From: Propionibacterium ruminifibrarum
GTDB lineage: Bacteria > Actinomycetota > Actinomycetes > Propionibacteriales > Propionibacteriaceae
DNA length: 32,000 nt
NCBI RefSeq assembly: GCF_900289195.1
Contig: NZ_OMOH01000006.1
Coordinates: forward strand, 30,001 to 62,000
Reading direction: 5' to 3'
In this document: positions 3,899 to 31,067 of the stretch, piece after piece
How the letters are laid out: each line of letters starts with the position of its first letter
Numbering within the stretch: position 1 is the stretch's first letter
Translations under genes and position numbers: made by a program
The notes under the pieces: generated by a model
Told to the model about the DNA's origin: nothing
The model's input: the letters and a program-made list of their open reading frames with translations, nothing else
Database searches by the model: none

Positions 3899-6800
3899 TC
3901 ACCGACGACGCCTGCGCAGGAGCGGCACAGCGGCCACCACGCAGACCAGTGCCGCTGTGAGTCCTGCCGCACCAGCACCGGTCCTGGGCAGGCCGGACGG
4001 GCTCGTCGAGTGTCTCCTGGGTGACTCACCGGTGGAGGGCTCGGGAGCCGGAGTGGAGGATTCCGGGGTCTCGTCAGGGGTCGACGGGGTCGGCTCCGGG
4101 ACCGGCGTGTAGACGTTCTCGAACTCGACCGGGACGACCTGGTCACGCTCGGAGACGGTCACCGTCCGGTCCTGCGGAGCGTCCAGCGTGTACCCGTCGA
4201 TCTGCGCCGCATCCGCGTCCTCGGAGATGGTGCACTCGGTACCCAGCGGGAAGGACGTGTCCGCCGTGACCGCCGTGCCGTCGCCCGGGACGGTGAGCGA
4301 ACCGGTCTGACCGTCGGTGCAGTCATAGGTGAAGGTGAACTCCTTGTCACCAGCCGAGGCGCCGGACACCGACTTCGCCACGGAGAACGTGCCGCGGTGC
4401 AGGGTGTACGTGTTCGTCGCGGCGATCGCGATCTCGGCGCCATTGACCACATCGAAACTCGCGCTCGGACCCGAGGCCTCCTGACCATCAAGGGTCAGGA
4501 TCGCCGCCAGGTCGGTGCCGGCGGCCTCGGCGTCGCGCTCGGTCACGGTGCAGCGGCCGACCGGCACGTTCGTGACGCTAGCAGTCGCTCCGGCCCCGAC
4601 CGTCAGCTCGCCGGACACGGTGCTCTCCCCGGCCTCATCGGTGCAGTCGTAGTCGAAGGTGAATGACGTGGGAGCCAGTGAGGCGCCGTCGCCGTCAACG
4701 GTCTTCGCGACGGTGAAGCCGCCGACCAGCCGCGTGTAGTCGTTCGTCACGGTCAGGACGGGATTCTCGCCCTTGGCGATGGTCACCGTCGTGTCCGAGT
4801 ACCGTGTCGCCACCGCGAAACCGGCGCGTTCAGCGCTGCCGGCGTCCTCGGTGATCGTGCACGAGGTCCCGGTCGGCAGCCTCGGACCGGACACCTCGCT
4901 GCCATCGCCGGGCACCACCAGCGAACCCGTCGCGTCATTGTCACAGCTGTAGTTCACGGTGAACGCATCCGAGGGCGAGGCCTGGTAGTCACCGGTCACC
5001 TGCTTGGCCACCGAGAAGGTGGCCTCGTCGCGGGTGTAGGCGTTCTCGAAGTCGACCGGAACGACCTGATCCTTCTCGGTGATCGTCACCGTCCGGTCCT
5101 GCGGAACATCCAGCGTGTACCCGTCGATCTGCGCCGCATCGGCGTCCTCCGAGACCGTGCACCAGGTGCCCAGCGGGAAGGACGCGTCGGCCGTGACCGC
5201 CCTGCCATCGCCCTTGGCCGTCAGAGAACCGGTCTGACCATCAGAGCAGTCATAGGTGAAGGTGAACTCCTTGTCACCGGCCGAGACACCCGACACCGAC
5301 TTCGCCACGGAGAACGTGCCGCGGTGCAGGGTGTACGTGTTGGTCGCGGCAACCGCGATCTCGGCGCCATCGGTCACATCGAAGCTCACGCTCGGACCAG
5401 AGGCCTCCTGGCCATCCACGGTCAGACGCGTCTCCTGGTCAGCAACGATCACCTCGGCGTTACGTTCGGTCACGGTGCACCGGCCGACCGGCACATCGGT
5501 GACGCTGGCAGCAGTACCGGCCTCGACCGCCACGGATCCGGACCGCGTCGGCTCACCGGCCTCATCGACGCAGTCGTAGTCGAAGGCGAACGCCCGAGGC
5601 GCGAGTGAGGCCCCGTCGCCGTCAACGCTCTTCGCGATGGTGAACCCGCCGACCAGCCGGGTGTAGTCATTCGTCACCGTCAGCAGGAGCGCAGCACTTC
5701 CTGAGATGACCACGGATGTGTCCGAGTAACTCGTCGCCACCACGTAGCCATCGCGCTCTGCGCTGTGGGCGTCCTCGGTGATCGTGCATACGATACCGGC
5801 CGGCAGTCTCGGGCTGAGTACCTCGGAGCCGTCACCTGGCACATCAAGCGAACCCTCCGACCCATCGTCACAGCGGTAATTGACGGTGAACATCTCAGCG
5901 GACGAGGCCTGGTAATCACCGGTGACCAGCTTCCTCACAAGGAGTGCACCCTCATTACGGGTGTAGTTATTTGTGAACGAGACCGGTATCGGCGTCATCG
6001 CGTCCGATATCGTCACTGTCTGGTCCTGCGGCACGTCCAGTGCGTGGTTTGGCACCTCCGCAGACGAGGTGTCCTCCGAGATCGTGCACTCAGTACCGAG
6101 CGGGAAGGATCTGTCGGCCGTGACCGCCGCGCCGTCGCCTTTGACCGTCAACGAACCGGTCTGACCATCAGAGCAGTCATAGGTGAAGGTGAACTCCTTG
6201 TCACCGGCCGAGACACCCGACACCGACTTCGTCACCGAGAACGTGCCCAGGGCGGTCACCTGGTTGCTCAGGTTGACGGCGACGGAGGTCTGGTCGCCGA
6301 TCGTCAGGGTGTTGGTGGTGCGGTTGCCGATGGTGAAGACGGGATCGCCCCACGCGTAGCCGTCGGGGGCCGGCGAGGCCGTTGACGTGTCCTCCTCCAG
6401 GGTGATCCGGGTACCGGCGGGGAAGGTGCTCGGGTACGGGGTCTTCTGGCCGACTCGCACCGTCATCGTCGTGGTGCCGGTTCTGCGGTCGGCGTTGAGC
6501 GTGCCGGGAGCCGTCCAGCCCTCGTAGGCCGAGGCCGCAGCGGGCAGCTCGTAGTTCACGGCGACCGTCAGGCTCGTTCCGTCGGGCACGCTGCTCGCGC
6601 CGTTGCCGCGCAACAGTTTGGTGACGTCGAAGCCGCCGAAACCGGCCGCCATCTCGACAGAGATCGAGAAGGAGTCGACGTAATAGCGTTCCGCGCTGCG
6701 TGTCTGGTTCAGGCCCTGGAGGGTGACGCTGTTCTGGTACTGGAAGCCCTTGACGACGCTGCCACCCGGGAAATCAGCGTTGTAGACGATGAAGTAGTTG

Positions 6801-7729
6801 GTCTCGGGCGCGAAGGGACCGGTCACCGTGATGGTGGCGGTGCTCCCCTCGGTGGTCATCGTCATGTCGAAATCGCCGTAGGCGCTGCTCAGGTCCTCAC
6901 CGGCGGCGTTGACGATCGGGTCGCCCGCCTCGCGGGCCGGGTCGGTGGCGCTGTTGCGCAGTAGGAGCCGTGCCGTGGTCAGGTCGGTGGAGAAGGTCAT
7001 GCCGTCGCCGAGGGTGTCGGTGAAGGTGAGGGTCTGGTTCGTCGAGCCGTCGAAGACCATCCCGGTGTCCTGGGTCAGGCTGGTGGTGTTGAAGTTGATG
7101 CCCCACTGCACGCTGGTGGCGTTCTCGGCGATGGCGCCGCCCCACTTGGACAGCGAGCCCCATCGGCCGTAGTCGGGTCCGGGGATGCCGCCGCCCGCGG
7201 GCAGTTGGACGGCCGTGACGACACCGTTCGCCGTGATGTTCGCGGTCTGGCTCGTCGTGCTCGTCGTGGCGACGAGCAGGGCCTGCCCCGTGCCACTGAA
7301 GCTGGTGAAGCCCGAGTTGCGGAGCTCGTCGACCGTGCCGTCGAAGGTGCACACGACACGGGTCCTCGTCAGTTCGCAGCTGCCGATCTGTTTCTCGGCG
7401 CCGTCGTAGAGGATGGACATCGGGGTGGTCTTGGGGAAATCGAGGTTCCTGAAGTTGGCGCCGAGGTCGATCGAGAAGGAGTCGCCGCTCTTCACGTTGG
7501 CCCTGGTGGCGTCCCAGGTGAAGGACAGCTTCGCGTAGCCGCCGACCTCGATCTTGCCGTCCTGGTTCTCGCCGCCGACGGTGGACCGCACCAGGCTCAG
7601 ACCCGAGACGGTGATGGCCGAGTTCTCCTCGGCCCGGGCGGGAAGGGTCGTGTTGAAGATGGTGAGCATCAGGGTGAGTGCGAGGAATACGGCACCCAGC
7701 GGGCGCCGCACCGAGCGGGTGCGCGACAT
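3899..7729 (-). CDS. Large LPXTG-anchored cell-wall surface protein (MSCRAMM-like adhesin), 1276 aa
   Basis: Track ORF 3899..7753. The signal peptide is MSRTRSVRRPLGAVFLALTLMLTIFNTTLPARA|EE. An N-terminal Ig-like adhesin region of about 340 aa follows, containing the motif TLTFTDTLGDGMTF. Next comes one Cys-free repeat-like domain, then seven repeats of about 100 aa of three subtypes arranged (A-B-C)x2-A, each with a conserved C-x27-30-C pair. A Pro/Thr/Ser/Glu-rich stalk (PVPEPTPSTPDETPESSTPAPEPS) leads to the sorting signal LPRTG, a hydrophobic helix and RRRRR. The start at 7729 is chosen because GGAAGG lies 9 nt upstream and it aligns with the paralog's start. Confidence 0.9.
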   Translation of the reverse strand: MSRTRSVRRPLGAVFLALTLMLTIFNTTLPARAEENSAITVSGLSLVRSTVGGENQDGKIEVGGYAKLSFTWDATRANVKSGDSFSIDLGANFRNLDFPKTTPMSILYDGAEKQIGSCELTRTRVVCTFDGTVDELRNSGFTSFSGTGQALLVATTSTTSQTANITANGVVTAVQLPAGGGIPGPDYGRWGSLSKWGGAIAENATSVQWGINFNTTSLTQDTGMVFDGSTNQTLTFTDTLGDGMTFSTDLTTARLLLRNSATDPAREAGDPIVNAAGEDLSSAYGDFDMTMTTEGSTATITVTGPFAPETNYFIVYNADFPGGSVVKGFQYQNSVTLQGLNQTRSAERYYVDSFSISVEMAAGFGGFDVTKLLRGNGASSVPDGTSLTVAVNYELPAAASAYEGWTAPGTLNADRRTGTTTMTVRVGQKTPYPSTFPAGTRITLEEDTSTASPAPDGYAWGDPVFTIGNRTTNTLTIGDQTSVAVNLSNQVTALGTFSVTKSVSGVSAGDKEFTFTYDCSDGQTGSLTVKGDGAAVTADRSFPLGTECTISEDTSSAEVPNHALDVPQDQTVTISDAMTPIPVSFTNNYTRNEGALLVRKLVTGDYQASSAEMFTVNYRCDDGSEGSLDVPGDGSEVLSPRLPAGIVCTITEDAHSAERDGYVVATSYSDTSVVISGSAALLLTVTNDYTRLVGGFTIAKSVDGDGASLAPRAFAFDYDCVDEAGEPTRSGSVAVEAGTAASVTDVPVGRCTVTERNAEVIVADQETRLTVDGQEASGPSVSFDVTDGAEIAVAATNTYTLHRGTFSVAKSVSGVSAGDKEFTFTYDCSDGQTGSLTAKGDGRAVTADASFPLGTWCTVSEDADAAQIDGYTLDVPQDRTVTITEKDQVVPVDFENAYTRDEATFSVAKQVTGDYQASPSDAFTVNYSCDNDATGSLVVPGDGSEVSGPRLPTGTSCTITEDAGSAERAGFAVATRYSDTTVTIAKGENPVLTVTNDYTRLVGGFTVAKTVDGDGASLAPTSFTFDYDCTDEAGESTVSGELTVGAGATASVTNVPVGRCTVTERDAEAAGTDLAAILTLDGQEASGPSASFDVVNGAEIAIAATNTYTLHRGTFSVAKSVSGASAGDKEFTFTYDCTDGQTGSLTVPGDGTAVTADTSFPLGTECTISEDADAAQIDGYTLDAPQDRTVTVSERDQVVPVEFENVYTPVPEPTPSTPDETPESSTPAPEPSTGESPRRHSTSPSGLPRTGAGAAGLTAALVCVVAAVPLLRRRRR
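4082..4257 (-). repeat. 3' module shared with the paralogous adhesin gene (partner 8372..8547)
   Basis: Base-by-base comparison shows 4082-4178 is identical to 8372-8468 (97 nt). The full 176-nt stretch has 4 mismatches (4179, 4223, 4228, 4229). Similarity continues more weakly for about 150 nt further. Confidence 0.9.
4105..6255 (-). repeat. Intragenic tandem repeat with an exact 927-bp (309-codon) period, about 2.3 copies
   Basis: Identical landmarks recur at offsets of exactly 927 bp. ggtctgacc... occurs at 4304, 5231 and 6158. cagtcgtagtcgaagg occurs at 4644 and 5571. Copies appear roughly 80-95% identical by eye. Each unit encodes three Cys-pair domains (A, B, C). Confidence 0.9.
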
Positions 7730-7789
7730 GGCAATGAACCTTCCGGTGGTCATCGGCGGCGGGGGTGCGCAGCAGCATGAAGCTGCGAC

Positions 7790-8080: not shown

Positions 8081-9427
8081 TCACCGGCGGCGCCTGCGCA
8101 GCAGCGGCAGGGCGGCCAGCGCGCCGGCCGCAGCGACGGCCGTGAGCCCGGCGGCACCGGAACCGGTCCTGGGCAGACCGGACGGGCTCGTCGAGCTCCG
8201 CCTGGCCGACTCACTGGGTGAGGAACTCGTGACAGGCGCAGAGGATTCAGGGGTCTCCACCGGCGCCGAAGGAGTCTGGGTCGGGGCCGGCGCGGAGGGC
8301 TCCGGGGACTCGCCAGGGGTCGTCGGATCCGGCGCGGAGGGCTCCGGGGACGAAGGGCTCTCCTCCGGGGCCGACGGGGTCGGCTCCGGGACCGGCGTGT
8401 AGACGTTCTCGAACTCGACCGGGACGACCTGGTCACGCTCGGAGACGGTCACCGTCCGGTCCTGCGGAACGTCCAGCGTGTACCCGTCGATCTGCGCCGC
8501 ATCCGCGTCCTCCGAGACCGTGCACTCGGTACCCAGCGGGAAGGACGCGCCGGCAACCACCGCCACACCATCACCCCTGGCCGTCAGCGAACCGGTCTGT
8601 CCGTCGGTGCAGTCATAGGTGAAGGTGAACTCCTTGTCACCGGCGGAGGCACCCGTCACCGACTTCGCCACCGAGAAACCGCCCTCATCACGGGTATAGG
8701 CATTGGTGAACGAGAGCCGCTGCGAGGTCTCATTCCGGATCTTCACCGTCTGGGTCTGTGGGACTTCCACCGAGTAGCCAGGCACCTGCGCAGAGGAGGG
8801 ATCCTCAGCCACGGTGCACTCGGTACCATTCGGGAAGGTCGTGCCGGCCTCGACCGACGTGCCGTCGCCCGGGACGGTGAGGCTGCCCGACTGACCATCA
8901 GTGCAGGTGTAGGTGAAGACGTAGGGCCCCACAGACTGGTCCCCGATACCTTCAATCACCTTGCTTACCTCGAAAGTACCGTGCCGGCTGTAGACATTCC
9001 ACACGGTGATCCTCGTGTCCCTTCCCCCAGTCACATCGAACTCGGCCCCGGCAATATCTTCCCAGATCACATCCTGGTTGCTCACAACCGTGGTCGACCC
9101 CAGGTCGGCGCCGGGCACCGAGGCGTCTCGCTGATACGCATCGCACTGCCCGATCGGCACATCGGTGATGGTGACACCACTGCCGACCTCAACCGTCAGC
9201 ACACCGGACACGGTGGGCTCACCGGCAGTGTTCGAGCACTCGTAGTCGAAGGTGAAAGACTTGGGAGTCAACTCGCCCGCATTGCCGATTGCTGGGTCTA
9301 CGAAGATGGTGAAGCTGCCGACATCATCGGCGTGCGCGGGGACAGTCGCGTTGAAGAGTGTGATCATCAGGGTGAGAATGAGGAACACGGCACCCAGCGG
9401 GCGCCGTCTTGAGTGACTGCGCAACAT
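8081..9427 (-). CDS. LPXTG-anchored cell-wall surface protein, shorter paralog of 3899..7729, 448 aa
   Basis: Track ORF 8081..9451. The signal peptide is MLRSHSRRRPLGAVFLILTLMITLFNATVPAHA|DD. Three Cys-pair repeat domains follow (one C-type, two A-type) with no N-terminal adhesin region. A long Pro/Ser/Glu/Thr stalk leads to LPRTG, a hydrophobic helix and RRRRR. The start at 9427 has GGGAAAGG 8 nt upstream. Confidence 0.9.
   Translation of the reverse strand: MLRSHSRRRPLGAVFLILTLMITLFNATVPAHADDVGSFTIFVDPAIGNAGELTPKSFTFDYECSNTAGEPTVSGVLTVEVGSGVTITDVPIGQCDAYQRDASVPGADLGSTTVVSNQDVIWEDIAGAEFDVTGGRDTRITVWNVYSRHGTFEVSKVIEGIGDQSVGPYVFTYTCTDGQSGSLTVPGDGTSVEAGTTFPNGTECTVAEDPSSAQVPGYSVEVPQTQTVKIRNETSQRLSFTNAYTRDEGGFSVAKSVTGASAGDKEFTFTYDCTDGQTGSLTARGDGVAVVAGASFPLGTECTVSEDADAAQIDGYTLDVPQDRTVTVSERDQVVPVEFENVYTPVPEPTPSAPEESPSSPEPSAPDPTTPGESPEPSAPAPTQTPSAPVETPESSAPVTSSSPSESARRSSTSPSGLPRTGSGAAGLTAVAAAGALAALPLLRRRRR
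8372..8547 (-). repeat. 3' module shared with the large adhesin gene (partner 4082..4257)
   Basis: See the partner entry: 172/176 nt identical, including a 97-nt perfect run. Confidence 0.9.
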
Positions 9428-9490
9428 GAGGACGACCTTTCCCAGGAGCATCGCGGATCGGGGGGTGCGCAGACAATTGAAAGCAGAACC

Positions 9491-14135: not shown

Positions 14136-16361
14136 GTGACCAGAAATGGCACTGCTGACCCCTTGGTGGGTCATGTGCTGGATGACCGCTACGAGATCCT
14201 GCAGAAGCTGGCTCGTGGCGGCATGGCCACCGTCTACCGTGCCCAGGATCTGCGGCTCGGCCGCATCGTCGCGGTCAAGGTGATGCACGATGACCTCGAC
14301 GAGGCGCAGGGAACCGACTTCGCCCGCAAGTTCGACCGCGAGGCGCGGGCCGCGGCAGCGCTGACCGATTCACACGTCGTCGGTGTCTTCGACCAGGGGA
14401 TCGACGACGGCCGCCCCTACATCGTCATGGAGTTCATCGAGGGCTGCACGCTGCGCAACCTCATCACGCGCGAGGCGCCGTTCGACCCCGAACGCGCGCT
14501 CGGCCTCATCGAACCCATCGCGGCCGCCCTGGCGGCCGCCCACGAATCCGGTCTGGTGCACCGCGACGTCAAACCCGAGAACGTCCTCATCGGCAGCAAG
14601 GGCCAGATCAAGGTCGCCGACTTCGGGCTGGCCCGCGCCGCCAGCGCGAAGACGATCACCGTGGCCAAGGGCAACGTCATCGGCACGGTCAGCTACCTGC
14701 CGCCCGAGATCGTCGCGCAGACGCACGCGGACGCCCGCTCCGACATCTACTCGACCGGGATCGTGCTCTACGAGCTGCTGACCGGTGAGAAGCCCTACAC
14801 GGGCGAGAACCTGCAGGTCGCCTATGCGCACGTCAACAAGTCGGTTCCCGCACCGTCGCAGACGCTGCGCCGCAACGGCCACGCCCCCGTACCCGATTAC
14901 GTGGACGCACTGGTCATCGCGTGCACACGCCGCGATCCCGATCGCCGCCCGGCCGACGGGCACGACCTGCTCACCAAGGTGCGCCGCGCCCGCGCCGCCG
15001 TGGCGGCGGGTGTCACCAAGGACGACTCGTTGTCCATGGTCATGTACCCCGCCGGGTGGCGCGAAGGACGCACCTGGTCGGGGGCGAACGTCCGCGTCGG
15101 CAGTGTGCACATCGACACCGAACCGATCCGGCTCTCGTCGAGGGCCCGGGGCCGGGAACGCGCCGTGTCCTCGGCCGCCCCCCGCACGACCCGCGTCCGG
15201 TCCGCCGCCGGCCAGACTGTGACGAGCCTGTCGGCCGCCGGGGCGAATCCCCGGCAGGGACGTCACCGCCACGACGAGCCGGCGCGCCCGCCCTCGGACG
15301 GCTGGCACCCGGTCGACTCGCCCTCGCGCCCGGCCGCGCCGGTCAGCCCGGTCGATTACCGCGATCACCTGTCCCAGACCGGCTCGCATCCGCTGCCGCG
15401 GCATCAGCGCAGCCCGCTCCCGCGCAGCCAGCGCACGCCGTTGTTCCCGGAGATCGCCAACGACCCGGTGCACCGCCGCCGTCGCGGCGTCGTCGCGACC
15501 CTGCTCGTCCTGGTCCTGGCCACCGTCATCGGCGTGAGTTCCTGGTGGGTCACCTCCGGGCGCTTCATCGAGACACCGGACATGGTCGGCATGAGCCAGG
15601 ACTCCGCGATCAGCGCCGCCCAGCAGGCCGGGCTGACGGTCAGCTTCGAGCAGGCCTACAGCGACGACGTCGAGGCCGGCCTGGTCATCTCGACCGATCC
15701 GACGGCGGGCACGAGGATCGAGCGCAAGTCGCAGATCGACGCCGTCATCTCGGCCGGGCCGCAGACCTACACGATGCCGAACGTGGCGGGTCTGACCCAG
15801 GAGGCCGCTGTGCAGGCCCTCCTCGACGCCCACCTGGCCGTCGGAACCGTGACGCAGGAGTACTCCGACACCGTTGAGGCCGGCTCAGTCATCTCGGCCG
15901 GCGCGGAGGCGGGCACCCAGGTCGTCCACGACACGGCCGTCGACCTCGTCGTCTCGATGGGCCCCTCGCCGATCCAGGTGACCGACTACACCGGCAAACC
16001 GGCCGATGAGGCCAAGAGCGCCCTGGAGAAGGCCGGTTTCACGGTCACCACCGAGGAGCAGTCCTCCTCGACGGTCGAGGTCGGTCATGTCATCTCGCAG
16101 GACCCCGCCGGCGGTCAGCTGCAGGCCGGCAGCGAGATCCACCTGGTGGTCTCCAGCGGCGCCGAGGAGGTCTCGGTGCCCGACGTCCGCGCCCGCACCA
16201 TCGACGACGCCCGGTCGATCCTCGAGGCCGCCGGGTTCACCGTCGAGGAGAAGTACGTCGACGAGAACGCCTCTGTGCGCCTGAACCGGGTGCAGAAGAC
16301 CGATCCGGTGCGCAACACGAAGCTCGCGAAGGGCTCAACCGTGACGATCTACATCATCTGA
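14136..16361 (+). CDS. Transmembrane Ser/Thr protein kinase with four extracellular PASTA domains (PknL/PknB-type), 741 aa
   Basis: Track ORF 14052..16361. The Hanks kinase domain is intact: G-loop LARGGMATVY, VAVKVM, HRDVKPENVLI, VADFGLA, GTVSYLPPE and DIYSTGIVLYELLTGEKPY. A disordered Arg/Pro-rich linker of about 190 aa and the TM helix VVATLLVLVLATVIGVSSWWV follow. Four PASTA repeats of about 65 aa complete the protein. I prefer the GTG at 14136 (VTRNGTADPLVGHVLDDRYEI), which has GGAG 8 nt upstream. Its position next to metF and the synthase matches pknL of Corynebacterium and Mycobacterium. Confidence 0.93.
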   Translation: MTRNGTADPLVGHVLDDRYEILQKLARGGMATVYRAQDLRLGRIVAVKVMHDDLDEAQGTDFARKFDREARAAAALTDSHVVGVFDQGIDDGRPYIVMEFIEGCTLRNLITREAPFDPERALGLIEPIAAALAAAHESGLVHRDVKPENVLIGSKGQIKVADFGLARAASAKTITVAKGNVIGTVSYLPPEIVAQTHADARSDIYSTGIVLYELLTGEKPYTGENLQVAYAHVNKSVPAPSQTLRRNGHAPVPDYVDALVIACTRRDPDRRPADGHDLLTKVRRARAAVAAGVTKDDSLSMVMYPAGWREGRTWSGANVRVGSVHIDTEPIRLSSRARGRERAVSSAAPRTTRVRSAAGQTVTSLSAAGANPRQGRHRHDEPARPPSDGWHPVDSPSRPAAPVSPVDYRDHLSQTGSHPLPRHQRSPLPRSQRTPLFPEIANDPVHRRRRGVVATLLVLVLATVIGVSSWWVTSGRFIETPDMVGMSQDSAISAAQQAGLTVSFEQAYSDDVEAGLVISTDPTAGTRIERKSQIDAVISAGPQTYTMPNVAGLTQEAAVQALLDAHLAVGTVTQEYSDTVEAGSVISAGAEAGTQVVHDTAVDLVVSMGPSPIQVTDYTGKPADEAKSALEKAGFTVTTEEQSSSTVEVGHVISQDPAGGQLQAGSEIHLVVSSGAEEVSVPDVRARTIDDARSILEAAGFTVEEKYVDENASVRLNRVQKTDPVRNTKLAKGSTVTIYII

Positions 16362-16434
16362 CCGGGTGCCGCCGTGGGGCTGGAGGCACCCCGGATCGAT
16401 CCCGACCGGGCCGGCCGGTGCCCCGGAACCGGCC

Positions 16435-17508
16435 TCAGCCGAGCAGCCACATCACGAGGAGCAGCGCGGCGGCCAGGGCGCAGAGCAGGACGCCGGTCAG
16501 GGCCCAGCGCCCGGGCGTGCCGCGCACCGCGGGCCGTTCCCCCGCCGTCGCAGCGGGCCGGGCGGGATCCGCGGCCTCAGGGGTTCTCACGACGTGAACG
16601 AGGTGTTCGCTGACCCGTGCCGGGAGAGGCCCGTTCGTCCCCCATTCCGGGGGCAGGTCCGGTGTGGCGTCCTCGACGATGAAGGGCTCGGCGAAGCGGG
16701 CCCGCTGGCCGCTCGCGGGCTCCTGCGCGGTCGGCGCGGCGCGGACGGCTGTCAGCTCCGTGCGGGCGGCGGACGCGCTGGCGGTGCGGGCAGGGGCCGT
16801 GGCCAGCAGGTGCCCGAGGAAATCACCGACAGGGGTGCCCCGGTACTGCGCGGGCACCTCTGCCCCGCCACGGGCCACCGCGCCGGCCGAGGGCCGGCGG
16901 CCGGTGAGCATCTGCACCAGGAGGGCGCCCACCGAGTAGAGGTCCTGGACGGGATCCGGCGCGGCCCCGGAGAAGGCCTCGAAGGACATGTACCCCGGTG
17001 TCCCCACGGCGGCGCCGAGCCCCCGGGTGTCCCGCGTGCCGTCAGCGGTTTCGGCAACACCGCCGAGCCCGCCGAGGATCACGCGGGGACGCCGCCCGGC
17101 GCACAGCAGCACGACGTGGTCGGCGATGCCGCGATGCACGAGCCCCGCGCCGTGCAGCACGGTCAGGGCGGCCAGCAGCTGGTCGGTGATCTCGAGTGCG
17201 TTGTCGACGTCGATGGGTTCGTGGGCGGCCAGCCGGTCGCCGAGCACCTGGCCGCCCACCAGGGGGCTGAGGACGAGCGCCGGTCCCCCGGCCGCGCCGC
17301 CCACGACGACGGGTACCGCCAGGTGGGCCGCGGTAGTGGGGATTCGGGCGAGCAGCCCGCTCAGGGGTCCCGGGGCGTCGTCGACGAACTCGCAGGCCAG
17401 GTAGACCTTCTGCTCGTCGTCCCACACCCTCCAACGATTCCCCGCGAGGGCATCGACACGTTCGTAGCGTCCGCCGAAGACATCACCCATGGTGCGCAAG
17501 CATGCCAT
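16435..17508 (-). CDS. Tail-anchored protein-kinase-fold protein lacking all catalytic residues (predicted pseudokinase), 357 aa
   Basis: Track ORF 16435..17511, where the first codon is TTG and an ATG lies at 17508 (alternative ATG at 17490, MGDVFGGRYERV). The kinase scaffold is recognisable: GRYERV..LAG, GLVHRG, GTPGYMSFE and DLYSVGALLVQMLTGRRP. The catalytic positions are replaced: VAVK->LACE, HRD->HRG, KPEN->ADHV, DFG->LGG. The extreme C-terminus is a hydrophobic helix, WALTGVLLCALAAALLLVMWLLG, followed by the stop. Confidence 0.75.
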   Translation of the reverse strand: MACLRTMGDVFGGRYERVDALAGNRWRVWDDEQKVYLACEFVDDAPGPLSGLLARIPTTAAHLAVPVVVGGAAGGPALVLSPLVGGQVLGDRLAAHEPIDVDNALEITDQLLAALTVLHGAGLVHRGIADHVVLLCAGRRPRVILGGLGGVAETADGTRDTRGLGAAVGTPGYMSFEAFSGAAPDPVQDLYSVGALLVQMLTGRRPSAGAVARGGAEVPAQYRGTPVGDFLGHLLATAPARTASASAARTELTAVRAAPTAQEPASGQRARFAEPFIVEDATPDLPPEWGTNGPLPARVSEHLVHVVRTPEAADPARPAATAGERPAVRGTPGRWALTGVLLCALAAALLLVMWLLG

Positions 17509-17581
17509 CAAAGACCCGGCGGCGCACGGTGACCTGCCGGCATGACCCGCCCGAGGGCGGGCACAGGGCGCCGGCGGACAG

Positions 17582-17617
17582 CAGAGGAGGGCGGCCCCGT
17601 GGGGCCGCCCTCCTCTG
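17582..17617 (-). terminator. Long perfect GC-rich hairpin 17 nt downstream of rplO (end of the spc operon)
   Basis: cagaggagggcggcccc gt ggggccgccctcctctg forms a stem of about 15-16 bp. A second hairpin, cccgccc..gggcggg, follows at 17546-17561. Neither has a U tract. Confidence 0.55.
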
Positions 17618-17633
17618 CCATTGTCGCGTCGGC

Positions 17634-18083
17634 TCAGCGCTCGGTGACGCTGCCGCCGGCCTTCTCGATCTTCTCCCTGGCGGAGGCGCTGAACTTGTCG
17701 GCGGTGACGTCGAGCTTGACGCTCAGCTCGCCGTCGCCCAGCACCTTGACCGGCCTACCGGCACGAACCAGTCCCGCGTCGACGAGGTCGTCGACGCCGA
17801 CGGCGCCGCCCGCCGGGAAGTGCTCGGCGATCCGCGCCACGTTCACCGGCTGGTACTCGACCCTGAAGGGATTCTGGAAGCCGCGCAGCTTCGGCATCCG
17901 CATGTGCATCGGCATCTGGCCGCCCTCGAAGCTCTCGGGCACGTTCTTGCGTGCGCCGGTGCCCTTGGTGCCGCGGCCGGCGGTCTTGCCGCCCTTGCCA
18001 GCCTCGCCACGGCCGACGCGCTTCCTGGTGTGCTTCGCGCCGGGCGCCGGGCGCAGGTGATGAACCTTGATCGGCATGCTCAC
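17634..18083 (-). CDS. rplO: 50S ribosomal protein L15
   Basis: [41 protein letters not shown] is an L15 signature. The GTG at 18083 overlaps the rpmD stop. An alternative ATG lies at 18077. Confidence 0.96.
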
Positions 18084-27158: not shown

Positions 27159-27470
27159 TCACGGAAGCTTGATTTCGATGTCAACGCCGGCGGGAAGATC
27201 GAGACGCATGAGCGAGTCGACGGTCTTCGGAGTCGGGTCGAGGATGTCGATGAGCCGCTTGTGGGTGCGCATCTCGAAATGCTCGCGGCTGTCCTTGTAC
27301 TTGTGGGGCGAACGAATGACGCACCACACGTTCTTCTCGGTCGGCAACGGCACTGGGCCGGCGACCTGGGCACCCGTCCGGGTGACGGTGTCGACGATCT
27401 TGCGCGCCGACGAGTCGATGACCTCGTGGTCATAGGCACGGAGCCTGATGCGGATCTTCTGTCCCGCCAC
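27159..27470 (-). CDS. rpsJ: 30S ribosomal protein S10, 103 aa
   Basis: (V)[75 protein letters not shown] matches S10. The GTG at 27470 has AGAGGA 6 nt upstream. The track ORF extends artificially to 27542. Confidence 0.96.
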
Positions 27471-27855
27471 GGTTGTTCCTCTTCTCGTCCCTGCTGAGCC
27501 GGTGCACCCGGCCTGGCCTGGTTGTGACCAGGGCGAATCCACCTCGAAAACTCTCCGTTTTCACCGCTATTCGCCCTTGTCAATGTCATGTCGCCTGGCA
27601 CCCGAGGTCGGGCGTGTCGGCCAGCATTTTTTGAGCGCACGCCATGCGTGCGCTCGATCGGCTGCCCGGACAGGGCCTCGCCGAGGCCCGTACCGCTGCC
27701 TGGGTTCCCCGCAGCGCGGCGCCTCGGAACGACGTCCGACGCAGTCCCACCGCAGGGAGCAACTTGTCCATGTTCCCATGAATCGATGGCCCAGGCAAAT
27801 CACTGGTGCAGATTTCTTGCCGGCCGGCCCGCGCGCGGCGGGGCCGGGGCCGAGT

Positions 27856-29319
27856 TCACAGGCGCCTGCGCAGACCTTCGATGCGGGCCAGGGTGGATTC
27901 CCGGCCGAGGATCTGGCAGGTCTCGAACAGCGGCGGGCTGACCTTGCGACCACTGGTGGCCACCCGCAGCGGCGCGAAACCGGCGCGGGCCTTGAGGCCC
28001 ATGGCGTCGACGAGCCGGGCACGCAGGGCGGCCTGGATCGTGTCCGCGTCGAAGGGCTCGACCGCGCCGAGGACCTCGGCCGTGGCGTCGAGGATCTCGG
28101 CGGCGTCGTCCTTGAGCTGGGCGCGCGCGGTGTCCTCGACACGGATCGAGTCGTCGGGAACCGTCAGGAAGGCGATCTGGTCCCAGGCGTCCGACAGCTT
28201 GACCAGGCGCGGTTTGATCATGCCTGCCGCCGCCCGGACGATGCCCGCCCAGGCCGGATCGGGGTCCGGACCCCACTGCTCGTTCTCACTGATGTACTCC
28301 ACCAGACGATCACCCAGCTCGTCGTCCGAGAGCTCCCGGATGTAGTGACCGTTGAGCCAGTCGAGCTTCTTGGTGTCGAAGATCGGGCCGACGGTGTTGA
28401 CCTTGCCCCAGTCGAAGCCCTCGACGAACTGCTCGAAGGTGCTGATCTCCTCGTCGCCGCCCGCCGGCGGGTAGGCCAGCAGCTGGAGGAAGTTGCGCAG
28501 GGCCTCGGGCAGGTAGCCCTGCTCCTTGAACCACATGAGGCGCGCGGCCGGGTTCTTCCGCTTGGAGATCTTGGAGTGATCGGCGTTGCGCAGCAGCGGC
28601 ATGTGCGCGAACTGGGGCGGTTCCCAGCCGAGCCAGCGGTAGAGCAGGATGTGCTTGGGGGTCGAACTGATCCACTCCTCCCCCCGCACGACCGTCGTGA
28701 TGTCCATCTCGTGGTCGTCGACGACGACGGCCAGGTGATAGGTGGGGAACCCGTCGGTCTTCATGATGATCTGGTCGTCGGGGAACGGCGCCTTGACATC
28801 GCCCCGGATCACGTCGTGGAAGACGGTCGGTGCGTCATCGGGGATGAGCATGCGCACGGTGGGGGTCTCGGTGAAGCCGGGCAGTTCGGCGCGCTCCTGC
28901 TTCGTCATCCGGTAGCACAGCCGGTCGTAGCGCGTGTCCTCCTTCCGGGCGGCCTTCTCCTCACGCATCCGGGCCAGCCGCTCGGGGGAGCACCAGCAGT
29001 GGTACGCATGGCCCTCCGCGATGAGCCTGTCGACGATCGGCTGGTAGCGGTCCAGCCGCTCGGACTGCTTGTACGGGGCGTAGGGCCCCCCGAGGACCGG
29101 CGACTCGTCGGGGCTCAGGCCCAGCCAGTCGAGGGTGTCGATGATCTGCTGCTCGGAGCCGGCGACCAGGCGGGCGCGGTCGGTGTCCTCGATGCGCAGC
29201 ACGAACCGGCCGCCGGTCTTCACCGCCCACGCCTTGTCGAAGAGGGCCATGTACGCGGTGCCGACGTGCGGATCACCGGTGGGGGAAGGAGCAACACGAG
29301 TGCGAGCAGGAGTCGTCAT
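27856..29319 (-). CDS. gltX: Glutamate--tRNA ligase (glutamyl-tRNA synthetase), 487 aa
   Basis: This is the C-terminal part of track ORF 27856..29790, starting at the ATG at 29319: MTTPARTRVAPSPTGDPHVGTAYMALF (HIGH-type motif). It also has RIEDTDRAR, PTYHLAVVVDDHEM and the KMSKS-type motif KISKRK. Confidence 0.95.
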   Translation of the reverse strand: MTTPARTRVAPSPTGDPHVGTAYMALFDKAWAVKTGGRFVLRIEDTDRARLVAGSEQQIIDTLDWLGLSPDESPVLGGPYAPYKQSERLDRYQPIVDRLIAEGHAYHCWCSPERLARMREEKAARKEDTRYDRLCYRMTKQERAELPGFTETPTVRMLIPDDAPTVFHDVIRGDVKAPFPDDQIIMKTDGFPTYHLAVVVDDHEMDITTVVRGEEWISSTPKHILLYRWLGWEPPQFAHMPLLRNADHSKISKRKNPAARLMWFKEQGYLPEALRNFLQLLAYPPAGGDEEISTFEQFVEGFDWGKVNTVGPIFDTKKLDWLNGHYIRELSDDELGDRLVEYISENEQWGPDPDPAWAGIVRAAAGMIKPRLVKLSDAWDQIAFLTVPDDSIRVEDTARAQLKDDAAEILDATAEVLGAVEPFDADTIQAALRARLVDAMGLKARAGFAPLRVATSGRKVSPPLFETCQILGRESTLARIEGLRRRL

Positions 29320-29359
29320 AGTGGCGCCAAGTCTAGTGGCTGTCACCCGCGGCCTATTA

Positions 29360-29375
29360 TCGAACTCATGTACGA
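29360..29375 (+). promoter_or_regulatory. Candidate LexA (SOS) box TCGAAC-TCAT-GTACGA overlapping the umuD start codon
   Basis: It matches the actinobacterial / Gram-positive consensus TCGAAC-N4-GTTCGA at 11 of 12 positions. The ATG of umuD (29368-29370) lies inside the box. A -10-like TATTAT (29355-29360) sits 7 nt upstream of the ATG, which suggests a leaderless transcript. Confidence 0.6.
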
Positions 29376-29796
29376 AGTACGAGTGCTGTGTCAGGTGGCG
29401 CAGCTGACACCCGCGGCACCGGTCCCCCTGGCCGTCGAGACCGTGCCGGCGGGTTTCCCCTCGCCCGCGCAGGACTACTGGGAGCGCGACATCGACCTCA
29501 ATGAGCACTTGATCCGCAACCGGCCCGCCACATTCGTCGTCCGGGTCGCCGGGGACTCGATGGAGGGGGCGGGGATCTTCGACGGGGACGAACTGATCGT
29601 GGACCGTTCCCTCCAGGCCGGTGAGGGGGACGTGGTGATCGCCGTCATCGAGGACGAGCTGACCGTCAAACGCCTCCACCTGACCCCTGACGGCCCTCAG
29701 CTTCAGCCGGCCAACGACGCCTACCCGGTGCTGAGACCCCGCGAGCTGAGGATCTGGGGGGTGGTGACGACATGCCTGCATCATCTGCACCGCTGA
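29368..29796 (+). CDS. umuD: UmuD-like S24 peptidase (DNA polymerase V autoproteolytic subunit), 142 aa
   Basis: This is the in-frame C-terminal part of track ORF 27448..29796. It aligns by eye to E. coli UmuD. The cleavage-site region is VPAGFPSPAQDYWERDIDLNEHLI. The catalytic Ser lies in VAGDSMEGAGI and the catalytic Lys in LTVKRL. Confidence 0.88.
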   Translation: MYEVRVLCQVAQLTPAAPVPLAVETVPAGFPSPAQDYWERDIDLNEHLIRNRPATFVVRVAGDSMEGAGIFDGDELIVDRSLQAGEGDVVIAVIEDELTVKRLHLTPDGPQLQPANDAYPVLRPRELRIWGVVTTCLHHLHR

Positions 29797-31067
29797 CCCG
29801 GTATGCGCTGGTGGACGTCGACGCGTGCTACTGCGCGTGCGAGAGGATCTTCCACCCCGAACTGGAGGGCGTCCCGGTGGTGGTACTGTCCAACAACGAC
29901 GGCTGCGTGATATCCCGCAGCAGCGAGGCCACGGCCCTCGGGGTGGAGATGGGCGCCCCGTGGCTCCGGATCAGGAACTGGGCCGCCCGCCGGGGCGTGG
30001 TCGCCCGGTCGTCGAACTACGAGCTGTACGGGTCGATCTCCAGGCGGCTCATGGATCTCCTCCACGACGTGTCCCCCGCCGTCGAGGCGTACTCGATCGA
30101 CGAGGCCTTCATCCGCGTGCAGGCCACCGACCCGGACGGCCTGGCCGCCCTCGGCCACCGGATACGCGCCACGGTGCGGCGGGACCTGGGGATACCGGTG
30201 TCCGTGGGGATCGGCCCGACGAAGACCCTCGCGAAGCTCGCCTCCCATGGCGCGAAGCACTCCCGGGCCCTCTGCGGGGTCGCCGTGTGGGACCAGTGCA
30301 CCGAGTCCGCCCGGGCACGGATCCTCCAGGCGACACCGGCCGCCGGCGTGTGGGGGGTGGGGCGTCGCACGGCCCGGCGGCTGGCCGCGCGAGGCATCGA
30401 CACGGCCGGGCAGCTGCACGGGCAGGACCCCGGCGCCCTCCGGCAGCAGTTCGGCGTGAACCTGGCCCGCACGGTCCTGGAGCTGCGCGGGACACCGTGC
30501 ATCGAGACCGCGGACCATGACGCCGACCGGAGCGGCCGGCTGGTGTTCTCCCGGTCGTTCTCCACCCCCGTCACCACGGCGGACCAGATGCACCAGGTGC
30601 TGAGCCTGTACGCGCAGCAGCTCACCTCCCGGCTGCGCCGCCAGGGCTCCGTGGCGGGAGCGGTGTGGGCCTTCGCCGCCACGAGCCCGTGCCGGGAACC
30701 CTTCCACCAGGTGTCGGCCGCGGCCGAGCTGCCCGAGCGCACCGACGATCCCCTGGCGGTACTGCGGAGCGTGTCCGGGCTGCTGGAGCCGCGGATGGCC
30801 GAGGGGGCGCGATACGTGCGGGCGGGGATCTGCCTGTCCGAGCTGGCCCCCGCAGGCCGCCAGGAGCCCCTGCCCGTGTTCGCCGCGGATCCCCGCGGGC
30901 GGCGCATCGGCGCCGTGATCGACGAGGTCAACACCCGGGTCGGCCACGGCGCGGTCGGGCTCGGGCTGGCCGGGCTGGCCTGCCCGCCCGACTGGCAGAT
31001 GCGCCGCGGGATGCTCTCCAACCGGGGTACCACCTGCTGGGCGGAGCTGACGACCGTCCGGGCCTGA
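29772..31067 (+). CDS. umuC: Y-family DNA polymerase, UmuC-like (Pol V catalytic subunit), 431 aa
   Basis: YALVDVDACYCACERIFHPELEGVPVVVLSNNDGCVISRSSEATALGVEMGAPW...SSNYELYGSISRRLM...YSIDEAFI closely parallels the E. coli UmuC N-terminus (DVNAFYASCE, VVVLSNNDGCVIAR, SSNYELYADMS, YSIDEAF). It overlaps umuD by 25 nt, with GGGGGTGGTGA upstream of the ATG. Confidence 0.9.
   Translation: MPASSAPLTRYALVDVDACYCACERIFHPELEGVPVVVLSNNDGCVISRSSEATALGVEMGAPWLRIRNWAARRGVVARSSNYELYGSISRRLMDLLHDVSPAVEAYSIDEAFIRVQATDPDGLAALGHRIRATVRRDLGIPVSVGIGPTKTLAKLASHGAKHSRALCGVAVWDQCTESARARILQATPAAGVWGVGRRTARRLAARGIDTAGQLHGQDPGALRQQFGVNLARTVLELRGTPCIETADHDADRSGRLVFSRSFSTPVTTADQMHQVLSLYAQQLTSRLRRQGSVAGAVWAFAATSPCREPFHQVSAAAELPERTDDPLAVLRSVSGLLEPRMAEGARYVRAGICLSELAPAGRQEPLPVFAADPRGRRIGAVIDEVNTRVGHGAVGLGLAGLACPPDWQMRRGMLSNRGTTCWAELTTVRA

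Follow-up and report, generated by a model that had tools for sequence, protein, structure and literature searches.

Does the kinase-like gene located beside a PASTA-domain Ser/Thr kinase gene in Propionibacterium ruminifibrarum encode an enzyme, a partner of that kinase or a decaying relic? The gene occupies positions 16435..17490 on the minus strand of a 32,000-nucleotide stretch of contig NZ_OMOH01000006.1, referred to below as the window, and encodes 351 residues and a stop codon in an intact open reading frame starting with ATG at 17490. It is convergent with the gene of the four-PASTA Ser/Thr kinase (741 aa, 14136..16361, plus strand). The in silico analysis of the encoded protein, of its homologues and of their genomic surroundings indicates that the product is very probably a catalytically dead kinase that is still maintained by selection.

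The loss of the catalytic residues has been identified through a family alignment of the window protein and four relatives of the same clade (P0002-P0005), which together represent five pseudokinase lineages, with 91 active-type relatives. In the active-type proteins G17, K34, E52, D121, K123, N126 and D141 are each kept in 91 of 91 sequences, and the activation-loop Arg and Thr are likewise conserved in all of them. The window protein carries E34 (17389-17391, minus strand), T52, G121, A123, V126 and G141 instead, together with a shortened Gly-rich loop in which indels occur between the pseudokinase lineages. Over the five lineages the β3 Lys is replaced by E/Q/Q/R/Q, the αC Glu by T/S/R/R/G, the HRD Asp by G/N/N/A/T, the catalytic-loop Lys by A/A/C/G/S and the catalytic-loop Asn by V/V/A/V/V; the DFG Asp has become Gly in all five. 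The remnant of the catalytic loop reads HRGIADHV (residues 119-126, 17113..17136, minus strand) in place of HRDxKPxN, whose D, K, P and N are present in 91/91 active relatives, and the DFG remnant is GLG (G141-L142-G143, 17062..17070, minus strand). An earlier reading of this DNA from its letters alone (the sequence-only reading) had listed such substitutions, and the family alignment indeed places no equivalent of Lys, Asp, Asn or DFG-Asp at the catalytic positions; its register for the last motif needs correction, as ADFG aligns to GGLG and not to ILGG, which leaves the loss of the Asp unaffected. About 49 positions conserved in at least 85% of the active members are altered, mainly in the N-lobe and the catalytic cleft. 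From the activation-loop Arg-x-Thr the window protein retains Thr alone (DTR), and this Thr is Ala in three of the five clade members; the activation loop, with about 28 residues, is of normal length. By the operational definition (VAIK-Lys, HRD-Asp and DFG-Asp substituted) the protein is, as aligned here, a pseudokinase. The database labels “protein kinase” and “non-specific serine/threonine protein kinase”, under which the P. australiense and P. acidifaciens orthologues (P0339, P0340-P0346) are annotated, are corrected by this loss of catalytic residues.

New charged residues, invariant in the clade and rare or absent in the 91 active relatives, are found in or near the catalytic loop: D124 (at the proline of KPxN), R133, R134 and E147, encoded at about 17050-17121. 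These residues may form salt bridges stabilising a fixed pseudo-active conformation. They could also be taken, by eukaryotic precedents such as WNK (cited in PMC12599244), as signs of an atypical active kinase or another nucleotide-using enzyme with relocated residues, e.g. Asp124 or Arg133/Arg134. Such an activity is highly improbable, however, because the Lys, the αC Glu, the HRD Asp, the Asn and the DFG Asp are all gone together, the Gly-rich loop is short and differs by indels between lineages, and constraint is weakest in the nucleotide-binding lobe. The former catalytic positions, moreover, vary among the lineages, and this variability of the replacements points to plain loss, not to a re-engineered active site.

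The overall architecture of the pseudokinase is predicted to be that of a Hanks-type kinase, as had been proposed from its motifs, all of which were found in the protein. The Pfam model Pkinase (PF00069) matches residues 84-209 with 43.1 bits (gathering cut-off 31.7; E 4e-11), and the NCBIfam kinase models match far under their equivalog cut-offs. BLASTP aligns the protein with the adjoining PASTA kinase at 28% identity (E 9e-13), and a phmmer search against PDB sequences returned S. aureus Stk1 and M. tuberculosis PknA and PknB, over the C-lobe. The AlphaFold2 model, built from a 56-sequence alignment, shows a bilobal kinase fold (predicted local distance difference test score, pLDDT, 84.7; predicted template-modelling score, pTM, 0.77) in which the activation loop is disordered, residues 328-350 form a terminal helix and the segment of residues 271-280 is locally confident (pLDDT 90). 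The best Foldseek matches of this model are PknB and PknA (E ~1e-14, target-normalised TM-score 0.71-0.76), the PknB structures 2fum and 5u94 reaching 0.74-0.76 with the same normalisation.

Within the predicted fold, the N-lobe (residues 1-80, 17251..17490, minus strand) contains the degenerate, shortened Gly-rich loop and is modelled with pLDDT 83-94. The C-lobe (residues 81-252, 16735..17250, minus strand) runs from αD to αI and keeps the P+1/APE segment GTPGYMSFEA as well as αF. Relative to the PASTA kinase, the F-to-H region is shortened by 11 residues, and the model shows short helical turns alone in this place; the same shortening is present in the active relatives. As the kinase domain extends to about residue 252, αH and αI included, the linker that had been estimated at about 110 aa is reduced to about 75 aa. 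Nor is it a plain low-complexity stretch rich in Ala, Pro and Arg, since a strongly conserved motif lies within it.

The alignments and searches assign the pseudokinase to a widespread family of active, tail-anchored actinobacterial kinases, of which it is, on this evidence, a degenerate Propionibacterium descendant. Five close relatives (P0001-P0005) at 58-100% identity, and many more distant ones, were obtained in database searches. The relatives within the clade, 58-78% identical to the window protein, are those of P. australiense, of P. acidifaciens and of three uncultured organisms; P. acidifaciens is a culturable, oral caries-associated species. The P. australiense protein and P0002 share 99% identity, and cluster look-ups assign P0339 to P. 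australiense and the P0004 cluster to P. acidifaciens. The dead clade falls into a single 50%-identity cluster when a library of 1.84 billion representatives is searched, and the next match is P0072. The active family is characterized by the N-terminal sequence MGEVFxGRYELVD, an invariant activation-loop PRxT, a juxtamembrane LPxxW and a terminal transmembrane helix. It is present in Propionibacteriaceae, Nocardioidaceae, Kribbellaceae, Streptomyces and Micrococcales, with members in Aestuariimicrobium, Enemella, Luteococcus, Tessaracoccus, Microlunatus, Acidipropionibacterium, Nocardioides, Kribbella, Streptomyces and Nesterenkonia; among the matches listed in a GTDB scan, all active relatives show 30-39% identity. 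No characterised member of this active MGEVF family was found. The window protein shares with the family full-length homology (30-44%), the N-terminus, the short F-to-H region, the LPxxWxxxGP sequence and the terminal transmembrane helix. It differs from it in the replacement of the catalytic and of most family-invariant N-lobe residues, in the lack of PRxT and in its genomic context.

In another relative, P0072 (L093:2112-3152, Logan SRR13001968), which has 43% identity with the window protein, the degeneration is partial. This protein has Gln at the β3 Lys, a partly deleted Gly-rich loop, HRDVNPAN in the catalytic loop and DLS for DFG; its HRD Asp and activation-loop Thr are still present. 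Its state indicates that catalytic decay is not unique to the Propionibacterium clade, and it may represent a second case of lost activity in the family, either independent or at an intermediate stage. An active family, a fully dead descendant in one genus and the half-degenerate P0072 together make the clade a clean and recent natural experiment.

Selection was estimated by pairwise Nei-Gojobori comparison of the five pseudokinase lineages with bootstrapping, at synonymous divergences (dS) of 0.47-1.0, and is expressed as the ratio of nonsynonymous to synonymous divergence (ω). The pseudokinase gene is under purifying selection, with a whole-gene ω of 0.27-0.43 (bootstrap 95% intervals 0.20-0.53) and no replicate reaching 1; the values for comparison are 0.09-0.15 for rplO and 0.26-0.32 for the PASTA kinase. 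Together with frames that are intact in all five lineages (347-357 aa), an ω below 1 confirms that a real, conserved gene and not a spurious reading frame is present. For the regional values, active congeners from Kribbella, Streptomyces and Nesterenkonia at similar dS served as the reference; those from Nocardioides were set aside, as they appear affected by paralogy or saturation. In the N-lobe ω is 0.31-0.90 in the pseudokinase clade versus 0.03-0.09 in the active congeners, a relaxation of about ten-fold. The corresponding values are 0.18-0.29 versus 0.07-0.16 for the C-lobe and 0.15-0.40 versus 0.15-0.60 for the post-kinase segment (residues 206-262), and the transmembrane helix of the clade gives 0.2-0.95. 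This distribution indicates that most of the constraint on the nucleotide-binding lobe is gone and that selection continues to act on the C-lobe, the αG-to-αI region and the juxtamembrane motif. It thereby marks the C-lobe and the juxtamembrane motif as surfaces that outlive catalysis.

A slowly decaying, non-functional relic of the ancestral kinase would also have lost all catalytic residues and would show a constraint relaxed three- to ten-fold relative to active relatives, with ω of up to 0.9 in the N-lobe and transmembrane helix. The location of the gene at a rearrangement junction and the apparent lack of the pseudokinase in P. freudenreichii, both described below, fit such a history as well. 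We nevertheless regard it as decidedly unlikely: five lineages separated by dS of 0.5-1.0 have all retained their full-length frames, ω is significantly under 1, and the C-lobe, the post-kinase segment and the motif at residues 265-298 have ω of only about 0.15-0.3, with many clade-specific invariant residues. A conserved element upstream of the start codon also argues against simple decay.

The C-terminal transmembrane helix is predicted at residues 328-350 (16441..16509, minus strand); Arg residues precede it, and the model likewise shows it as helical. The most hydrophobic stretch of 19 residues begins at residue 333 (mean Kyte-Doolittle 2.56). A wholly cytoplasmic kinase domain with a C-terminal tail anchor and without an ectodomain, as envisaged in the sequence-only reading, is supported by these features of the protein, with the small amendment that the helix is followed by one residue (351, the protein end) and not by none. 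The layout is no special trait of the pseudokinase. A strong hydrophobic segment is present in 78 active relatives, and in 75 of these the transmembrane helix lies 0-7 residues from the C-terminus; because of this the sensor-less, tail-anchored layout is regarded as ancestral, inherited from the large active family, and not as new.

The conserved motif of the linker, identified from the alignment, is RxxxPF[IV]VEDxTPxLPxxWxxxGPLxxRVSEHxV, located in the juxtamembrane region at residues 265-298 (16597..16698, minus strand). Its family-wide core is VxDxxPxLPxxWxxxGP. Thr276, placed in the sequence E-D-x-T-P-x-L-P, is invariant in the pseudokinase clade and present in 2% of the active relatives.

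A catalytically dead, tail-anchored Hanks kinase that acts as a membrane docking or scaffold protein is the reading that we consider probable as a whole, with moderate confidence. In the Propionibacterium clade the ATP and Mg site would have decayed completely and the N-lobe would have drifted, with selection keeping the C-lobe, the post-kinase segment and the juxtamembrane motif. The protein would then transfer no phosphate and would serve as a membrane-localised docking or scaffold protein, whose retained C-lobe and juxtamembrane surfaces may bind the partners of the ancestral kinase. Several points weigh against this proposal. The ω values are three to ten times those of the active relatives, which is clearly relaxed selection; those of the transmembrane helix lie at 0.6-0.95 in most pairs; and part of the purifying-selection signal could reflect slow decay. 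The alignment behind the structural model is dominated by active kinases, and the folding of the N-lobe may be overstated. In favour of the proposal, no active family paralogue in Propionibacterium sensu stricto was present among the database hits, these being hit lists and not whole-genome searches; the pseudokinase is probably the sole family member in the Propionibacterium genomes that carry it.

The sequence-only reading had suggested that the protein is dedicated to the adjacent PASTA kinase as its allosteric partner, scaffold or decoy substrate, and the locus was surveyed for synteny and co-occurrence. The PASTA kinase matches PknB_PASTA_kin with 578 bits (Pfam and NCBIfam searches) and is 88% identical to the P. 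australiense and 57% to the P. freudenreichii protein. It is the PknL equivalent by position, beside the MTHFR and polyprenyl synthase genes. The order of the MTHFR, polyprenyl synthase and kinase genes near mraZ and rsmH matches that of the M. tuberculosis Rv2172c-Rv2176 (pknL) region. PASTA domains are present in the PknL of Corynebacterium (PMC8408660). The gap of 73 bp noted between the pseudokinase and the stop codon of the PASTA kinase is exact; among the genomes carrying the pair the stop-to-stop distance ranges from 50 to 588 bp. In six of six pseudokinase genomes the genes form one block, in which the S10-spc operon ending in rplO is followed by the pseudokinase, the convergent PASTA kinase and polyprenyl synthase, MTHFR and a UvrD-like helicase.

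Outside these genomes no association of the two genes was seen at the loci compared. Their adjacency is confined to one Propionibacterium subclade, and the PknL-type PASTA kinase occurs without the pseudokinase in P. freudenreichii and throughout Propionibacteriaceae, presence or absence in named species being judged from cluster look-ups and from the PASTA-kinase locus. The P. freudenreichii locus (L092) contains neither the pseudokinase nor a ribosomal operon and runs on into EamA, a metallo-beta-lactamase-fold gene, DAHP synthase and acyltransferases. Among the GTDB loci listed, 0 of 80 active relatives have a PASTA domain or rplO within 8 kb, and no PASTA-domain gene was found near the five relatives inspected individually, which are four active members (Enemella, Nocardioides sp. 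J54, Streptomyces and Acidipropionibacterium) and the partly degenerate P0072. The Streptomyces active member adjoins genes for cyclophilin, DUF5324 and VWA proteins, which give no functional lead. The convergent downstream neighbour of P0072, considered as a PASTA kinase, was ruled out on inspection, the context consisting of DUF2255, cupin and CMD genes.

A functional pair is favoured by the convergent adjacency in all six genomes and by the membrane anchoring of both proteins with cytoplasmic kinase domains. In mycobacteria, receptor kinases phosphorylate PknL, which has no sensor (PMC8408660), and the pseudokinase domain of MviN is a PknB substrate (PMC12599244); the clade-invariant Thr276 stands in an acidic-x-T-x-x-Leu context partly like that of mycobacterial PknA-dependent phosphosites. 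A dedicated partnership is still rather unlikely. The six genomes are close kin (dS at most ~1) and the whole block is syntenic, so that adjacency is little informative and, among close relatives alone, provides weak evidence for partnership; the synteny beyond close relatives that would characterise a cognate kinase-pseudokinase pair was not seen at the loci compared. The P. freudenreichii locus and the result for the 80 active relatives listed point the same way, and the convergent orientation, with its variable gap, indicates that the two genes are not co-transcribed. The activation-loop Thr, the obvious phosphosite of a decoy, has been lost in three of the five lineages. PknB-type kinases dimerise back-to-back through the N-lobe, forming an allosteric dimer face (PMC12599244), and in the pseudokinase this face belongs to the least constrained region.

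A repurposed membrane phospho-adaptor has been considered by analogy with PknB-MviN-FhaA: Thr276 would be a target of the PASTA kinase or of a different Ser/Thr kinase and, once phosphorylated, would attract an FHA-domain protein or other effector. We hold this to be quite improbable; if true, it would mean a new branch of cell-envelope signalling in the Propionibacterium clade. Adjacency of the genes is all that connects the protein with the neighbouring kinase, its link to PASTA-kinase signalling is unproven, and the finding opens no long-standing question.

The surroundings of the pseudokinase gene point to a rearrangement. Within 17580-18083 the spc operon of the window ends at rplO and a strong hairpin, and secY-adk-map, the usual order after rplO, does not follow. 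Since the P. freudenreichii locus differs, the pseudokinase is placed at a lineage-specific junction (rplO / pseudokinase / pknL). In the clade of P. australiense and P. acidifaciens, rplO and the pknL locus appear to have been brought together by a rearrangement of the chromosome.

Seven families of bacterial Ser/Thr pseudokinases have been described, namely ActPs1-3, GLW, CP1, DYD and DLHK (PMC12599244; bioRxiv 10.1101/2025.01.12.632604). Several of them are actinobacterial with C-terminal transmembrane segments, and MviN (ActPs3) is a scaffold phosphorylated by PknB; such proteins have been catalogued and scarcely tested by experiment (PMC12599244). The window protein was compared with ActPs1-3 by their described features and not by the authors' family models. 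Like ActPs3/MviN, it is an actinobacterial Hanks pseudokinase with three degraded catalytic motifs, a transmembrane segment C-terminal to the domain and a plausible role as a membrane scaffold. In contrast to ActPs3/MviN, it has no activation-loop deletion of about 40 residues (a feature of about half or more of the ActPs3 proteins, so that its lack speaks against this family without being absolute), it is not fused to a flippase, and it derives from a different, still-active parent family; MviN is not among its best sequence or structure matches, which are headed by PknB, PknA and Stk1. With ActPs1 and ActPs2 it shares the actinobacterial origin and the loss of the catalytic triad, and with ActPs2 also the C-terminal transmembrane segment common in that family. 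It is without the ActPs2 hallmarks of a ~30-aa β3-αC insertion and a 200-250-aa activation-loop insertion, and where ActPs2 shows a DFG deletion, a conserved β3 Lys-to-Arg change and HRN, the window clade has an ungapped GLG, E/Q/Q/R/Q and HRG/N/N/A/T. ActPs1 proteins often lack the G-helix (a deletion of ~20 residues in ~60% of members), and the F-to-H region of the window protein, shortened by 11 residues, resembles this but is shared with its active relatives; many ActPs1 members also carry a C-terminal PQQ2 domain, and no PQQ domain was found in the window protein by Pfam.

Mycobacterial PknL (Rv2176) resembles the window protein in being a Hanks kinase with a transmembrane helix, fewer than 10 extracellular residues and no sensor domain, and other kinases are believed to control it (PMC8408660). 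It is, however, catalytically active, and its positional equivalent in the window is the four-PASTA kinase and not the pseudokinase. The window protein is best placed in the known class of actinobacterial Hanks pseudokinases tethered to the membrane, as a member that is restricted to one genus and whose degeneration was independent and recent.

The start of the pseudokinase gene, which had been set at 17508, is corrected to the ATG at 17490. All homologues begin with MG[DE]VF (MGDVF in the window protein), and the frame upstream of this ATG is broken in relatives by 2-nt indels; as these indels differ between relatives, the upstream sequence is regarded as non-coding. At the other end the frame runs uninterrupted to the stop codon at 16435-16437 on the minus strand. 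One P. acidifaciens entry (AYW78303.1) is called at 414 aa, which suggests an over-extended start. The G+C content of third codon positions is 0.88 for the pseudokinase versus 0.905 for the PASTA kinase and 0.93 for rplO, and is coding-like in a genome of ~70% G+C. A 388-aa antisense open reading frame (16366-17532, plus strand) extending across the whole pseudokinase was rejected as a gene, its codon-position G+C of 0.87/0.59/0.80 being that of a shadow frame.

Directly 5' of the ATG, the five-lineage alignment contains a 19-nt element, GATGGCATGCTTGCGCACC (17491..17509, minus strand), which is kept in all lineages while the surrounding intergenic sequence diverges beyond alignment. It is probably a promoter or translation-initiation region. 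Just past the rplO stop codon lies a perfect 18-bp G+C hairpin (17580..17619, minus strand; RNA fold z-score -4.6), probably the terminator of the spc ribosomal-protein operon; a strong G+C palindrome follows rplO in every lineage, with a sequence that differs between lineages. A simple scan of 16200-17800 for promoters and U-tail terminators found nothing, the rplO hairpin having no U-tail and being seen by folding alone. The hairpin and the conserved 19-nt element together suggest that the pseudokinase gene is a transcription unit of its own.

Further genes were identified at the borders of the block. Two large repeat proteins, probably located at the cell surface, are encoded on the minus strand at 3899-7753 (1284 aa) and 8081-9451 (456 aa); they contain eight and three DUF5979 repeats, respectively, each with DUF7601, and the larger one also has DUF7926. 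Their genes lie upstream of the UvrD-like helicase gene, where P. australiense has a DUF7926/DUF5979 gene too, and on the same helicase flank the relatives L001 and L003 have DUF3040 and mraZ instead. Between the helicase and MTHFR genes of P. australiense (L091:3909-4554) a HepT-like/nucleotidyltransferase (MNT) toxin-antitoxin pair is located, which is absent there in the window. Past the S10 operon, a gltX-like gene for a class I Glu/Gln tRNA synthetase (27856-29790, minus strand) is followed by a umuD-like gene (Peptidase_S24, ~29440-29796, plus strand) and then by a umuC-like gene (IMS/Y-family polymerase, 29772-31067, plus strand). The 782-aa open reading frame at 27448-29796 (plus strand) is mostly an antisense shadow of gltX, its S24 match being limited to the last ~110 residues.

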